A model generated the notes under the pieces. It made no database searches. It was not told where the DNA came from and saw nothing but the letters and a program-made list of their open reading frames with translations. From positions 3,419 to 67,418 of the forward strand of contig JAFRCK010000017.1 of assembly GCA_017404385.1 (NCBI GenBank): a stretch of 64,000 bases of DNA. The letters run 5' to 3'. Below, piece after piece: positions 50,875-64,000 of the stretch; the stretch's first letter is position 1, and each line of letters begins with the position of its first letter. This DNA comes from Bacilli bacterium. GTDB taxonomy: Bacteria; Bacillota_I; Bacilli_A; RF39; UBA660. The position numbers were made by a program, and so were the translations under genes.

Positions 50875-51543
50875 ATGGAATTTCCAAAAGGTGGATTCGT
50901 AACAGAAGTTTCACAAATAAGAACATTAGCAAGACAAATTAATAAAGATGTTTGCACAGCATATAAACAAGCAAATTTAGCAAAAGCTGATTGGCAAGGT
51001 GATCAATATGATGAAATGGTTAAAATTTTCCAAACTTACAAATCAAAAATTGATAGTATGTTGGAATTAGTTGTTACAAATATTCCAACATCATTAGAGA
51101 CAATTTCAAATATTGGTATAGCAACTTATCAATCAAAATATGGATCACAAGTTTCGCCAGATACTGCTGCTGTAGAAACTCCAACTGCCCTTGAAACACT
51201 TACAGAATCAGGTAGAGGTGGATCATGGCTTAGTGGAGATTATGCTGACTTATCAATTGTTCGACCATATATAACTGAAGTTAATACATCTATAGAATCA
51301 GCAAAAAAAGCTTTAAAAGACATTAATGGTAAAGTACAAGGCCTTACATCTTGGACAGGTCCAGATGCAACAAAATATAAAGAACAATTAAGCACTTTAG
51401 CAGGTGACTTAGATAAGAATTTCACTACTATGAATGAGAATTTTGAAACTTTAGCAACAGAAGCTGTAAATAAACTTAAAGCACAGCAAGATGCTGGTTC
51501 TAAAATTGCAGGCGGTGGTAGTGCAGGAGCAAGTAATATATAA
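50875..51543 (+). CDS. tandem WXG100-like protein (two W-x-G motifs)
   Basis: ADWQGDQYDEM (50992-51000) and TSWTGPDATKY (51352-51360), each centred in a roughly 100-aa helical half. GGGAGGTGA RBS. Confidence 0.55.
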   Translation: MEFPKGGFVTEVSQIRTLARQINKDVCTAYKQANLAKADWQGDQYDEMVKIFQTYKSKIDSMLELVVTNIPTSLETISNIGIATYQSKYGSQVSPDTAAVETPTALETLTESGRGGSWLSGDYADLSIVRPYITEVNTSIESAKKALKDINGKVQGLTSWTGPDATKYKEQLSTLAGDLDKNFTTMNENFETLATEAVNKLKAQQDAGSKIAGGGSAGASNI

Positions 51544-51547
51544 TAAT

Positions 51548-61100: not shown

Positions 61101-64000
61101 ATATAAAGATGGAATAATAATGACAGGAGATATTTCTTCAGGTGTAGTTAGTAATACAATTAATTTAGAGAATAATGTTACAATGAGACCTGGAAATGAT
61201 CAGGTATGGGATGAAGCTATGATGTTTCATCATATATGTGAATCATCACTATACAAAACCTATAATGATATAGGATATGGTATGGTAGTAAAAATTCCAA
61301 AAGAATACGTAATATTTGATGAAAGAGGAAACATAAAGGGATATGACTATGATAAATTATTATATACAAAAGATGGGCAAGTATATTTGAAACCAGAATT
61401 TATTGTAGCTCAAGTCGAAGTAGATAACACTCAAATATTACCATCAGAAAACACTAGATTTAAAGAAACTGAAACAGAAGATACTGCATCAAGATTTGGG
61501 TCTGCATTTGAACAAAATATGCCACAAACTAATGACCCTATAGAAACTTTATCTTCTGCTGCTGAAAAAGTAGCGGCAGCTGGTGAGTTAATAAGAGCTG
61601 CTACTAACGATGATTTGAATCCTCAACCAACTAACAATGTCAGCGATAATAATAAAACTGATTTCCAAGAAGAATTTAATCCTTTCTTCCCAGAAGGATT
61701 TAAAGAAAATCCTAAAATAGATAGTTTTGATTTTGAAAGATTCTTTGATTTAGATCTTGATGTAAAAAAAACAATAGAAAATTCTAATTCAATGAAATAC
61801 AATATGGATGGCGTTGAGATGGAGGAACATTTACTTAAGAATTTAGAAAAATGTGAAAGGTCGCTTAATTCCATTTTAAGAATGAATGGTTTGGATGCTG
61901 TTGATGTTGATATTGATGCAATAGTACAAAATATAGAAGAAAAAATAAAAGATTGTAATTGTGATCCTAAAAAACTACAAAAAGTATATGAAGAATATTT
62001 CTTATCGTTAAATGGAGATCTTGAGAATCAATTAGAGAAAAATATTGGTGGTTGGTCTATAAATAATACAAATTCGCTTAATACTATCTTAGATAATACT
62101 AAATCATTAAATGAAGTTTTGCACTGTTTGCATTTTTATACTATGAATAGTGAAACTGTATATCAAGCTTCAAATGTTCTAGATGAAAGAACAGATGGTG
62201 GGAATATAATATTAAGAGGAAATGACAATGCATTGGCTAGACAAATATATGAACAAGTTAATGGATTGGATTCTAGTCAGGTAGATATAATTGGTACTGA
62301 TAATAAAGTGTTAATAATGGTTAGAGATTATGGACATGCATTAACAATATGCATAGAACAAGAAGGTGATCAGTACAGAGTAACTTACAATATCCCTAAA
62401 GTTACTAATGTTGACTTAGTTAATCAATTACCAGGAGTAAAAAAAGTGGATTCAACTTCAGCAACCATGCTTGATGATACAGAAGGATGGAATACTACAA
62501 ATGGAGAATTTGTAATAAAAGGTGATGACGTTAGTAATCAAATAATAAATTTCATTAAACAAGTTCCAACAGATCTAGATATTGATACTCCTAGTCTTAC
62601 TGAAATACTTGGAATAGTTTCTGAAGTAGGAGAACAAAATAGTTCATGGAGTTCCTTATTTGATGAATCAAATGTTAATTCAACTGAATCTATTTTACCA
62701 AATAATAACACTGATTGTTTTAGTCAAAAAGAAATAGTTGATATGATAAATAATACACCTGATAAAATAACAATGATTTTAAAAGAAGCAGGTTGTAAAC
62801 AAAATAGAATTGACTATATATTGTCTGAAATTCAAAAAGGTAATACTTTGAAAATGGCAGGTGAAATATATAAAGAACAAAGAAATATTGTTATGAATAA
62901 TTCTCCATATGTAAAATATATAGATGGTATTAAGTTTGTTAGTGATTCGGAACAAGGATTAAAAAATCTTATAGATTATTATTATAGTTCTAAAAATACA
63001 GATTTATATGTAGACGGAGTTAGTATCTCATCTGGTGAAAGAGTTAGTTTCTTTGATGATTTATCTAAAATGGCTAAAAATGAATGCCCATTAACCATAA
63101 CAAATATAGATTTAGGTGATACTTCTCACTTTAGTATGAATCAAACTACTAGTAATAATCCTTATATTTTTATAGAAAATTCAGTAATTAGTGCATCAAA
63201 TTATTCGGTTTTATATCATGAAGGTGGACATTATAAAGGAAGAGTAAGAGATATGAATCACATATTATTTAATCCAGTTGAAATGATAATGGCTGAATCA
63301 GATGTATATAATAATATTAAGAATATATATGACAAATATCAAAAAGAACAAAGAGAAAATTTATATCAAAAAGTAGAGGAAACATATAAAGTTGAAATAG
63401 AACAAAAAGTTGAAGAGAGATTAATTAATGATTTAGGTGAAGATTATAAAACTAATACTAATGTAAAAGATATATCAGAAGCCTTAAGAAATATTTATAC
63501 ACAAGATTATATAAAAGAATACGTGGATGTATATAATAACGAATATGGATTAGCAGCAGTTGATGATATATTTGATGCATTAGGTGCAAAAGTAGGTGTA
63601 TATGGGCATGGAAGAGAATATTATAGAGGTATGGATAAATGTGCTGAAGAAATCAGAGCTAATCTAAATGCCTTATACTTTGCAGGTACCTTTGGTTTGA
63701 TTGGTAGATTCTTTGGAGAAGATATCAGTAACAAATTAAAAAATGGTGTTGAATTCATGAATGGTATTGATTCAGCAACTAATCTTGTTAAAGAAGCGTT
63801 TAATCATAAATTTGATATAAACAGTCAAATTGATGAATCCAATAATGCAACTAATAATGGTATGAGATTTACATTTAATGTTAAATCAATATCAGACATT
63901 ACAATGGATGATTTAAATAAAATAACAAATCCAAATAATGTATACTTTAGGACACTAGATGGAAAAGTTCTTTCATATAAAAATGTAATGGATATGAAAG
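58132..64000 (+). CDS. giant (at least 1956 aa, 3'-truncated by window) multi-domain polymorphic-toxin-like protein, probable T7SS substrate
   Basis: Manual translation from ATG 58132 is open to 64000. The track lists no other + ORF in the region. The N-terminus resembles LXG-type domain (FLGGYFYDTSDQAIKTM). HEGGH at 63227-63241. Confidence 0.65.
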   Translation, partial: MSENYVIKVDKLKGYQNTLKGEYTNFTNGVRNPFLGGYFYDTSDQAIKTMRDNIEAYLNKIDSGYNKIDSWLGKYIEEYTNLENSLKNGRVSGITDHDTNFLLSKIVDKNNVTIKEPTNIIYNLKQKDNKTERAAKYDTSKFDRNNLRLDSIGEIFTAINNGDADIVLDYMYGEHADEYLEISSNLNYYEEYQKTLDSEVKSLEAELNEYIEYKSVSSYGMTISGGGVGGIISGESERIEKGHKEIQAVNDLIAEKNKIDEQFNEILKDRASNDKDIQAVLSNQSATYEDLYKVLSEKAKTDSDLNNVLTKKTETDEKFNHLTSTQMKYYLYLSKQAELAAVNKKIIDLRNDQDALHYKVIGDTDEYKEFQKTYSIEDSYKQIVDAGATYQYHENDYDWFAYYETYANEGLGLKEAGFENQSLKIGELGAEVDVDVFYRHATDKEKQMYHYLFNTKGAAEANKYVTTLLNRINEEEGRELAEKSQKEIDYYYSGYADESGWYRVISFLAAQTKVTEKGIETGFNQFNRGIDSCVVTKKVMTVDEWKEYYESDYIRELGFGYYYDVVTNTTKMLPGMAIGLASTPALGSAIYTASIWGSTHDDAIRSGMSEEDAFKYATLIALEEYATDLLFKATPGLSKVDFEKSFFKRFFKEVSGETLQTYYEKWMDCVYKGEEWDLGEVSEEALYSSLVAAGSFFLISGPSAIKSSNDIVIKYKVNGQECEIRGTKGIQKVLVEAGIVDSSFDFDNISEFDANIAAADMMADDGKIAEVKITDINEVTEEKLSKIKYKERVMFTLPDGRMLSFNELQAELGYDGNTSTNETIASELNQNDLSDIYQEQSNTYQDSDVDIFAGVQKLTEDIPDIAGKVSETANEAAQNGARALKSLTEKFGLNNKGNGTFKSGLIDLSKLIINNNVGAIKNPFAKLFGQNDGNFEIPTKGLPKWHRSTIKGWDLKIDNEIGNNLHEIMSDEDYVYGVHRTPSLDSANTIYKDGIIMTGDISSGVVSNTINLENNVTMRPGNDQVWDEAMMFHHICESSLYKTYNDIGYGMVVKIPKEYVIFDERGNIKGYDYDKLLYTKDGQVYLKPEFIVAQVEVDNTQILPSENTRFKETETEDTASRFGSAFEQNMPQTNDPIETLSSAAEKVAAAGELIRAATNDDLNPQPTNNVSDNNKTDFQEEFNPFFPEGFKENPKIDSFDFERFFDLDLDVKKTIENSNSMKYNMDGVEMEEHLLKNLEKCERSLNSILRMNGLDAVDVDIDAIVQNIEEKIKDCNCDPKKLQKVYEEYFLSLNGDLENQLEKNIGGWSINNTNSLNTILDNTKSLNEVLHCLHFYTMNSETVYQASNVLDERTDGGNIILRGNDNALARQIYEQVNGLDSSQVDIIGTDNKVLIMVRDYGHALTICIEQEGDQYRVTYNIPKVTNVDLVNQLPGVKKVDSTSATMLDDTEGWNTTNGEFVIKGDDVSNQIINFIKQVPTDLDIDTPSLTEILGIVSEVGEQNSSWSSLFDESNVNSTESILPNNNTDCFSQKEIVDMINNTPDKITMILKEAGCKQNRIDYILSEIQKGNTLKMAGEIYKEQRNIVMNNSPYVKYIDGIKFVSDSEQGLKNLIDYYYSSKNTDLYVDGVSISSGERVSFFDDLSKMAKNECPLTITNIDLGDTSHFSMNQTTSNNPYIFIENSVISASNYSVLYHEGGHYKGRVRDMNHILFNPVEMIMAESDVYNNIKNIYDKYQKEQRENLYQKVEETYKVEIEQKVEERLINDLGEDYKTNTNVKDISEALRNIYTQDYIKEYVDVYNNEYGLAAVDDIFDALGAKVGVYGHGREYYRGMDKCAEEIRANLNALYFAGTFGLIGRFFGEDISNKLKNGVEFMNGIDSATNLVKEAFNHKFDINSQIDESNNATNNGMRFTFNVKSISDITMDDLNKITNPNNVYFRTLDGKVLSYKNVMDMK

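Follow-up and report, generated by a model that had tools for sequence, protein, structure and literature searches.

The DNA analysed here, referred to as the window, is a stretch of 64,000 nucleotides from contig JAFRCK010000017.1 of a Bacilli bacterium. From 50.8 kb on it carries an island of genes for a type VII secretion system (T7SS). The island is an unbroken series of open reading frames (ORFs) on the plus strand, p1 to p5, EssC, p7, and a toxin ORF that is still open at 64000. It appears to be a reduced arrangement derived from the T7SS of subtype b (T7SSb), with only WXG100 (TsxA), YukD-like (TsxB), and EssC-type ATPase (TsxC) components, and it is likely functional and exports an interbacterial ADP-ribosyltransferase (ART) toxin. 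The probability of this reading is put at roughly 70%. The island is regarded as a reduced T7SSb derivative because EssB, EsaA, and EssA are found neither in it nor at the related loci examined. The published catalogue of T7SS subtypes a to j has no arrangement that consists of TsxA, TsxB, and TsxC only and has an FHA-bearing EssC.

An original prediction, made from the letters of the window, had named these ORFs, and all are present on the plus strand where it placed them. It labelled the locus type VIIb. The label suits the EssC protein, which is of the T7SSb type, but three defining components (EssB, EsaA, and EssA) are not in the locus. The window was extended by L001, part of a 104-kb metagenome scaffold with 0 mismatches over 16,191 overlapping bp (window coordinate = L001 coordinate + 47809). 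ORFs were called and clustered for 24 loci, designated by L numbers, and for the final 24 kb of the window. A module recurs among them that consists of a YukD-like gene, three to four WXG100 genes, the p4 family, DUF4176, a toxin with a common N-terminal domain, and EssC.

EssC and its small partner proteins

The identity of EssC is beyond doubt. The protein scores 1005.7 bits against NCBIfam TIGR03928 (T7_EssCb_Firm; cutoff 778.4), with residues 239-1535 aligned, and it matches Pfam FtsK_SpoIIIE (E 8e-46). Two hydrophobic transmembrane (TM) helices lie at approximately residues 265-288 and 303-326. Among the proteins of the window locus, TM helices are predicted only in EssC. The closest solved relative is Bacillus subtilis YukB (9qks, E 1.5e-121). 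Since the sequence alignment to 9qks begins only at residue 309, residues 1-260 were modelled with AlphaFold2 (AF2) from a 37-sequence alignment. Residues 1-215 are all-beta in this model and form two beta-sandwich domains (predicted local distance difference test, pLDDT, ~90). The top three Foldseek matches in PDB are 9qks YukB, 5fwh Geobacillus EssC-FHA, and 1wv3 Staphylococcus aureus EssC. By these best structural matches, the modelled N-terminus is a tandem FHA region of the T7SSb type. The proposal of an EssC with an N-terminal FHA-like region and two TM helices is borne out by the TIGR03928 match and the model.

EssC had also been described as a triple P-loop ATPase, which is overstated because only the first domain (D1) is canonical, D2 has GSGKE, and D3 is degenerate. 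D1 possesses Walker A GMTGSGKS and Walker B LLIIADE. The D2 motif is GIAGSGKE, with GSGKE (nearly) invariant in 37 clade sequences, and inspection of the D3 sequence did not reveal a P-loop motif. The combination expected of a canonical T7SSb ATPase is present, namely tandem FHA domains, two TM helices, and three FtsK/SpoIIIE-type domains. Full-length homologues of EssC (40-84% identity) number more than 120, all of them from metagenomes or metagenome-assembled genomes (MAGs). Their lengths range from 1515 to 1566 aa, and the Walker A and B motifs of D1 are conserved down to 40% identity. Purifying selection on EssC can be argued from this conservation over so many full-length proteins.

The WXG100 component appears to be supplied by several genes. 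By its sequence, p1 is a fused tandem WXG protein, as had been suggested. Its N-terminal half matches Pfam WXG100 (E 1.2e-3), its C-terminal half matches TIGR03930 (E 6e-5), and the protein matches the WXG profile of the clade (E 2.8e-12; hhalign 86%). Matches of p2 were found to ESAT6_2 (E 1.6e-5) and Pfam WXG100 (E 2.3e-3). It groups by blastp with 46 small WXG proteins of the clade, and those members found in L007 have precomputed PF06013 matches. As p2 is the first row of the clade profile, its own score there is circular. The C-termini of p2 and its closest relatives read Y-x-x-x-D/E followed by K-K-I-D/E-V (YQTLD...KKIDV in p2), which resembles the YxxxD type of export motif. Matches to ESAT6_2 (E 1.6e-5) and to the clade WXG profile (E 8.7e-8; hhalign 79%) were also obtained for p3. 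All three proteins are below the Pfam cutoff for WXG100. Together with the clade WXG family, they represent the EsxA-type component of T7SSb.

Three WXG-type genes had been expected besides p1. This holds for p2 and p3, but p4 is related only weakly. The p4 family (C4) has one invariant Trp and follows the WXG genes in nine loci. Its hhalign match to the WXG profile is 68% (E 4.6e-5), and there is a weak match to the Pfam LXG C-terminal model (E 5e-4). The hmmsearch of p4 with the clade WXG profile was not significant (E 0.32), and a PDB profile search with the family gave nothing significant. Its sequence suggests that p4 is weakly WXG-related and possibly a partner in toxin targeting.

The small ORF that had been called YukD-like is 79 aa long, and its modelled fold agrees with that name. 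The Pfam YukD match of p5 is below threshold (E 0.08). Six of 12 clade members match at E <= 1, with a best value of 0.0017. The AF2 model (40 sequences, pLDDT 89) is a beta-grasp fold in the order beta-beta-alpha-beta-beta. Foldseek retrieved ubiquitin and ubiquitin-like proteins from PDB (TM-score ~0.75-0.8), the Ubl domain of EccD5 included. A PDB profile search with the family gave nothing significant. The protein ends in LILI and has no Gly-Gly; YukD/EsaB proteins likewise have no C-terminal Gly-Gly (Garrett et al., 2024, PMC11217815). Modelled p5 supplies the small ubiquitin-fold component, EsaB/YukD, of T7SSb. Homologues are present at 13 clade loci and mostly adjoin essC, and the family has motifs that are invariant across 40 sequences.

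The toxin, its chaperone candidate, and its likely immunity gene

The toxin ORF encodes 2573 aa when read through L001, and it is intact on several contigs. Its C-terminus matches ADPrib_exo_Tox (PF03496, residues 2421-2557, E 7.8e-19). The expected ART residues were located as the Arg of YRG, the Ser-Thr-Ser of LSTS, and the catalytic Glu of MEEILLG. The best reading of this sequence is a polymorphic toxin that ends in an ART, probably of the R-S-E type. The genes 3' of the toxin gene, seen in L001, are in order a 92-aa ORF, a 278-aa ADP-ribosylglycohydrolase, a 13-bp bidirectional hairpin terminator, and dinB. The island can be taken to end approximately 3 kb past the window because the terminator and then dinB follow the toxin cassette. 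The 92-aa ORF has a weak match to DUF4176 (E 1e-3). The 278-aa protein matches ADP_ribosyl_GH (E 3.9e-34) and is likely the immunity protein for the toxin. Immunity proteins of the Imm-ARG type are strictly associated with R-S-E ART toxins, T7SS-delivered ones included (Zhang et al., 2012, PMC3482391). The adjacent glycohydrolase gene indicates that the producer itself needs protection. Both marks of a polymorphic toxin are found, a variable toxin domain at the C-terminus and a cognate immunity gene downstream.

The substrate gene had been placed directly after essC. In fact p7 intervenes, and the substrate is the next gene. An identical p7 gene is present on 22 public contigs, between essC and the toxin gene wherever context exists. 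No Pfam or NCBIfam model matches it. A role for p7 as a chaperone or targeting factor is possible.

Residues 1 to approximately 100 of the toxin form a helical domain (SWLG...YTNLE) that 13 large proteins at related loci, different in other respects, have in common. Its pattern is F..EK..Y.N..Y.TF.SSYL..CSD...W[WL]..Y. Exhaustive searching located the domain in 76 representative proteins (87-3339 aa), and in nearly all of these it occupies residues 1-110. The C-termini among 58 of these include ADPrib_exo_Tox (7), CHAP (2), RHS, and MORN repeats. The extreme N-terminal position together with the varied C-termini is the signature of a trafficking domain of polymorphic toxins. The toxin of the window does not match Pfam LXG (PF04740), and a PDB profile search with the domain gave nothing significant.

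Two other regions of the toxin were observed. A HEGGH motif (HExxH) is located at residue 1696 (window ~63217). It may provide a second, metallopeptidase-like activity, as far as a motif can indicate. Smaller toxins of L011 with the same N-terminal domain have HExxH as FHEIMH, YHEITH, and YHEMMH. At residues ~1920-2220 (L001 16000-17000), a module of ~140 aa is duplicated in tandem, as read by eye. In a variant from the same species (L005 1-5502), both the 3' end of essC and the toxin gene are split into several ORFs. The breaks could stem from the assembly or mark a decayed allele, and an assembly artefact is conceivable because the contig contains runs of N.

EssB, EsaA, and EssA

The eight locus proteins have no match at E <= 1 to the Pfam and NCBIfam models for EssB/YukC (PF10140), EssA, or EsaA. 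As had been noted, essB, esaA, and essA were not found between the WXG genes and essC. In canonical T7SSb these components are encoded with essC; they were found neither in the window nor, as recurrent families, at 17 related loci, which span EssC identities of 40-84%. A position of the missing genes just past 64 kb, which had been suggested, is excluded for the next ~4 kb, where L001 contains the rest of the toxin gene and the cassette described above and no essB, esaA, or essA. Neither of the two outcomes that had been named as counter-evidence, these genes directly downstream or an EssC that fails its model, came about. The other ~51 kb of the window contains housekeeping or unrelated genes, including MurC, MurD, a GerA operon, an IS3 element, ABC transporters, and surface proteins. 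Neither the 28 ORF translations read by eye there nor the precomputed Pfam matches, available where L025 covers it, turned up EssB, EsaA, or EssA. For the 17 loci, 127 flanking ORFs were scanned with Pfam, and no recurrent YukC, EssA, Pkinase, PP2C/PPM, DUF6382, or DUF5050 was obtained. The families that do recur are DUF4176, WXG100, and glycosyltransferases. A synteny comparison with related genomes had been recommended, and these loci agree with the window in having no recurrent EssB or EssA family. Large multi-TM proteins are not a recurrent feature of the islands; a few TM segments are predicted in two proteins of the toxin family (L014 and L017).

Hidden Markov models (HMMs) for EsaA, EssA, EsaB, and EssB were also built from the Listeria and Bacillus mycoides loci and run on six-frame ORFs of 522 kb of clade DNA. 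None of the four gave a significant match; the best values were E 0.77 for EssB, 0.098 for EssA, and 0.0028 for EsaA, the last of these to a 108-aa coiled-coil ORF. As controls, EssC (E ~1e-200) and the WXG genes (E 2e-6) were recovered.

Several candidates for the missing proteins were considered and rejected. The families C14 and C6 (214-454 aa) have WXG-like N-termini and tails rich in S, T, N, and G, without TM segments. Their sequences indicate that they are probably substrates. These proteins, which are unannotated, are encoded between the WXG genes and essC in L007 (4549-9623), L012 (15802-20340), L019 (7320-9763), and L021 (4780-9698). Genes for GT2/GT8 glycosyltransferases adjoin them in L007, L012, and L021, and the proteins may be glycosylated T7 substrates. 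Of the membrane proteins that flank the clusters, the 680-aa protein of L011 is LtaS and the 592-aa protein of L014 belongs to a PrkC-RsgA-Rpe operon, both of them housekeeping. A 393-aa TM protein near the L013 cluster is beside a sigma factor, with no family assigned. DUF6568 (152 aa, N-terminal TM) is the sole recurrent small membrane protein beside essC and is located immediately 3' of it in L015 (14752-15210), L016, L018, and L022. It was rejected as an EssA analogue, being not at the window locus and travelling with a gene for a SpoU-family methylase (trmL-like). Its position next to essC is probably housekeeping synteny.

Two other features of the related loci were observed. A HerA/DUF87-type ATPase of ~660 aa, with a weak FtsK_SpoIIIE match, is encoded directly 5' of the T7 cluster in L015 (4009-6000), L017 (1181-3160), and L020 (4306-6057, minus strand). 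It is not at the window locus and could be an accessory ATPase or merely conserved synteny. L017 possesses two full-length essC paralogues in tandem (10001-19586), with a YukD-like gene 5' of the cluster and another after the second essC, followed by six ORFs of ~100-160 aa.

The strongest rival explanation is an ordinary T7SSb, in which EssB, EsaA, and EssA are encoded elsewhere on the chromosome, are possibly too diverged for Pfam, and only the gene order is unusual. A number of observations favour it and count against a reduced system. The HMM set that recovered EssC and the WXG genes missed the YukD-like genes (best E 0.12). Its silence on EssB, EssA, and EsaA is weak evidence, since a comparably diverged EssB or EssA would escape as well. 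The absence was observed over ~0.52 Mb of clade DNA. Moreover, the T7 genes of this clade can lie scattered, so that unlinked components are possible. In L010 neither a WXG nor a YukD gene is found within 10 kb of essC, and L020 is without a WXG gene. The L010 gene (10010-14635) is 65% identical to that of the window and stands alone among housekeeping genes, adjoining murD/murC-like genes. EssC also retains the tandem FHA that binds EssB in T7SSb, as in B. subtilis, which hints at a partner. The toxin does not fit its families in every respect. Its ART domain has Met in the place of the first Q/E of [QE]xE (M-E-E). One of 13 clade toxin N-terminal domains matches Pfam LXG (E 1.2e-3), and the hhalign match of the domain to the WXG profile is only 30%. 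On the other side, the 11-12 loci in which WXG, YukD-like, EssC, and toxin genes are clustered never carry an extra membrane protein. The canonical order esaA-essA-esaB-essB-essC is contiguous in the Listeria and B. mycoides controls, and none of the three genes turned up among the ORFs read in the other ~51 kb of the window. Genes dispersed over the chromosome are an unlikely explanation, though one to be taken seriously.

A different objection concerns the target. The giant ART could act on eukaryotic host proteins such as actin or Rho and not on rival bacteria. PF03496 is the C2/C3/VIP2/iota family, and the organism lives in animal guts. But the adjacent ADP-ribosylglycohydrolase follows the Imm-ARG pattern of interbacterial polymorphic toxins, and the toxin N-terminal domain is also found on CHAP and RHS toxins. 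A host target appears improbable. A decaying remnant, which has lost its membrane partners and its secretion and keeps the toxin and immunity genes as an addiction-like module, would account for the three otherwise essential components that are not in the island and for the broken toxin gene of L005, but it is very improbable given the full-length EssC with its conserved D1 motifs in over 120 homologues, the invariant YukD-like motifs, the intact toxin ORF, the single N-terminal domain common to diverse toxins of the clade, and the runs of N in L005.

The reduced T7SSb derivative with an interbacterial toxin is the preferred reading. How it might function can be outlined. EssC would hexamerise, and its TM helices or hairpins would form the channel. 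The YukD-like p5 would bind the DUF/FHA region of EssC and stabilise the assembly. WXG100 dimers (p2) and the single-chain p1 would be co-secreted as activators that license secretion, by analogy with the EsxA requirement. The N-terminal hairpin of the toxin could combine with p3, p4, and perhaps p7 into a WXG-like bundle that is recognised by EssC, and the DUF4176-like protein is a candidate chaperone that would stabilise the toxin. The ART domain would then intoxicate neighbouring bacteria that have no glycohydrolase, and the producer would be protected by its glycohydrolase, which would reverse the ADP-ribosylation.

A further step can be proposed only tentatively, at somewhat less than even odds. 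RF39-type gut Bacilli may run a natural minimal T7SS in which the FHA-bearing EssC, the YukD-like protein, and WXG100 are the entire machine and the TM helices of EssC are the sole membrane element, without a scaffold of the EssB kind or an envelope component such as EsaA or EssA. EssB, EsaA, and EssA are treated as core T7SSb components, and EssB was given a scaffolding role by the 2025 structure of YukB/YukC/YukD. If the clade truly keeps EssC, FHA, and YukD and lacks the three partners, it would show which parts are sufficient for translocation and offer a compact five-to-six-gene system for reconstitution. It would also extend the catalogue of T7SS subtypes to gut lineages that are known only from MAGs and were missed by RefSeq-based surveys. 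A minimal machine would be an eleventh T7SS arrangement, with the smallest sufficient set of components. In addition, approximately 76 or more polymorphic toxins with a previously unrecognised N-terminal targeting domain are added. The island suggests an investment in contact-dependent antagonism by RF39 bacteria, which are known to have small genomes. Should the missing genes prove to be encoded at another place in the genome, only an unusual gene order would be left of the finding. For T7SS specialists it is a possible natural minimal system; it is incremental after the 2024 catalogue.

Locus layout, host lineage, and comparison with known systems

The features of the island are collected in Table 1. 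The window has a G+C content of ~25%, and its genes are nearly all on the plus strand. A ribosome-binding site, GGAGGTG, fits the ATG of p1. The hairpin 3' of p4 was read by eye as AAAAAGTTATAA-atag-TTATAACTTTTT, then TTTT. Its stem has a single G-C pair, and a terminator scan did not call it. The hairpin and the consensus sites at p1 and p5 suggest two transcription units, with the limit that the region is AT-rich and matches to the promoter consensus occur in it no more often than in shuffled sequence.

Table 1. Features of the T7 island in window coordinates.
Feature	Position	Strand	Remarks
Promoter-like site TTTACA-17-TATAAT	50772..50800	+	11/12 consensus matches; 5' of p1; L001 2963-2991; only suggestive
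p1, tandem WXG100-like, 222 aa	50875..51543	+	WQG and WTG motifs; each half matches a model
p2, WXG100 protein (WTG), 95 aa	51634..51921	+	ESAT6_2, Pfam WXG100, clade family
p3, WXG100-like helical protein (WQS replaces WXG), 104 aa	51931..52245	+	ESAT6_2, clade WXG profile, hhalign
p4, helical/coiled-coil protein of clade family C4, 154 aa	52248..52712	+	Weakly WXG-related; family follows WXG genes
AT-rich 12-bp hairpin and T-run 3' of p4	52722..52753	+	Terminator-like, weak; read by eye
Sigma-70-type site TTGACA-18-TATAAT, perfect consensus	52761..52790	+	12/12 matches; 5' of p5; L001 4952-4981
p5, EsaB/YukD-like ubiquitin-fold protein (TsxB), 79 aa	52822..53061	+	AF2 model, Foldseek
EssC (TsxC), 1540 aa	53085..57707	+	TIGR03928, FtsK_SpoIIIE, tandem FHA model, two TM helices
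p7, small acidic/helical ORF, 103 aa	57810..58121	+	Between essC and toxin gene; no family match
Polymorphic toxin, first 1956 of 2573 codons	58132..64000	+	ATG 58132 behind ribosome-binding site; window-equivalent end 65853

Housekeeping genes are found directly upstream of the locus, leuS and genes for a S-adenosylmethionine (SAM) methyltransferase, a pseudouridine synthase, and a metallo-beta-lactamase (MBL) hydrolase. The island is flanked by the same two genes, MBL hydrolase and dinB, in three genomes (the window, L012, and L019). Other parts of the window were also observed. An IS3-family transposase pair, orfA/orfB, is present at 19586-20757, as seen from translations read by eye. Three consecutive ORFs of 264, 768, and 209 aa (7102-11453) have no TM segments or obvious family, and the protein collection contains no entry with the exact sequence of the 768-aa product.

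The original prediction had regarded the genome as Clostridia-like. The genome matches for EssC are to uncultured Bacilli, 'Tenericutes', Clostridium sp. CAG:433, Candidatus Aphodocola, and Candidatus Faecisoma, and the last two belong to the GTDB order RF39 (Gilroy et al., 2021). The host is an RF39-type member of the class Bacilli and an uncultured gut bacterium. The window also has a GerA/GerAC/spore-permease germination operon (24928-28538, minus strand) and MurD/MurC genes (13748-16443), and SpoIID and a SpoIVB-type peptidase are encoded at related loci. These genes indicate a walled, 'Mollicutes-like' lineage of the RF39 type that retains spore-related genes.

The island shares with the canonical T7SSb of S. 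aureus (Ess) and B. subtilis (Yuk) an EssC that passes the equivalog model, the tandem FHA, a YukD/EsaB-like protein, and WXG100 proteins. Both also have a DUF4176-like gene, and polymorphic toxin and immunity genes lie downstream. In the control loci of Listeria and B. mycoides (L026/L027), esxA-esaA-essA-esaB-essB-essC are contiguous. EssC is ~30% identical over nearly its full length to these two canonical proteins, and EssC proteins of the clade are at least 40% identical to one another. Unlike canonical T7SSb, the island has no EsaA, EssA, or EssB, it has several WXG genes, one of them a fused tandem, instead of a single esxA, and its EssC has GSGKE as the Walker A of D2 and no P-loop in D3.

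T7SS subtypes have been extended to a to j from RefSeq genomes, and T7SSc to T7SSj are eight non-canonical arrangements (Garrett, Higginson and Palmer, 2024, PMC11217815). Since these were described, a gene order that differs from ess/yuk has ceased to be surprising. The arrangement had been called atypical; this remains true insofar as a set of TsxA, TsxB, and TsxC with an FHA-bearing EssC is not among T7SSc-j, but not for the departure in order, which was already known. TsxA (WXG100), TsxB (YukD-like), and TsxC (ATPase) are near-universal, and every subtype adds one or more conserved components to them (PMC11217815). The extra components of T7SSc-j are TsxD (Ser/Thr kinase), TsxF (PPM phosphatase), TscE (von Willebrand factor A, vWA), TsxI/H/K, TsxJ (DUF6382-FHA), TsfV (AAA+), TsgL, and TsxG (EspG-like). 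None was found in the Pfam matches of the locus or as a recurrent family in the 127 flanking ORFs, EspG being judged by sequence families only. The one kinase found near the loci is a housekeeping PASTA kinase in the prkC-rsgA-rpe operon. A literature search found no description of a T7SS in RF39 or RFN20, nor of a 'minimal T7SS' or 'T7SSk'.

The simplest published subtype is T7SSg of Acetivibrio and Paenibacillus, with A1, A2, TsgB, an FHA-less TsgC, the DUF5050 propeller TsgL, and adjacent Tad pilus genes (PMC11217815). Its very small component set is similar to that of the island, and with its publication such small sets are already accepted as T7SS subtypes. Unlike T7SSg, the EssC here bears FHA domains, and TsgL and Tad pilus genes are not present. 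T7SSf and T7SSj of Clostridia need a PPM phosphatase and a DUF6382-FHA protein, plus an AAA+ ATPase (T7SSf) or a kinase and TsxI/K (T7SSj) (PMC11217815). The island resembles them in its FHA-bearing ATPase, WXG100, and YukD-like protein, and T7SSf/j cluster near T7SSb and carry LXG-type substrates. Unlike in these subtypes, their extra families are not recurrent in the 17 loci scanned.

The toxin is similar to LXG toxins that possess Lap factors and a DUF4176 chaperone, such as the Streptococcus Tel toxins. Like these, it begins with a helical targeting domain and ends in a variable toxin part, and its neighbours include small helical partner genes, a DUF4176-like gene, and, downstream, an immunity gene. 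It differs in that its N-terminal domain of ~100 aa is unrecognised by Pfam LXG and has a conserved pattern of its own, and the small helical proteins are not DUF3130 or DUF3958 by the tests run. The order of an ART domain gene followed by an ADP-ribosylglycohydrolase gene is that of the R-S-E ART/Imm-ARG toxins (Zhang et al., 2012). Tre1-Tri1 is such an ART toxin pair of the type VI secretion system, with an enzymatic immunity that reverses the modification. As differences from this group, delivery by a T7SS is proposed here, the carrier is 2573 aa, and the ExE motif is M-E-E.

With regard to the machine itself, EsxA has been reported to be required for secretion (J Biol Chem, 2026). YukB is the central channel component in B. 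subtilis, YukD binds the DUF and FHA domains of YukB, and YukC is a scaffold (Oka et al., 2025). With a central channel in YukB and YukD on its DUF/FHA domains, a core of EssC plus YukD is mechanistically conceivable.

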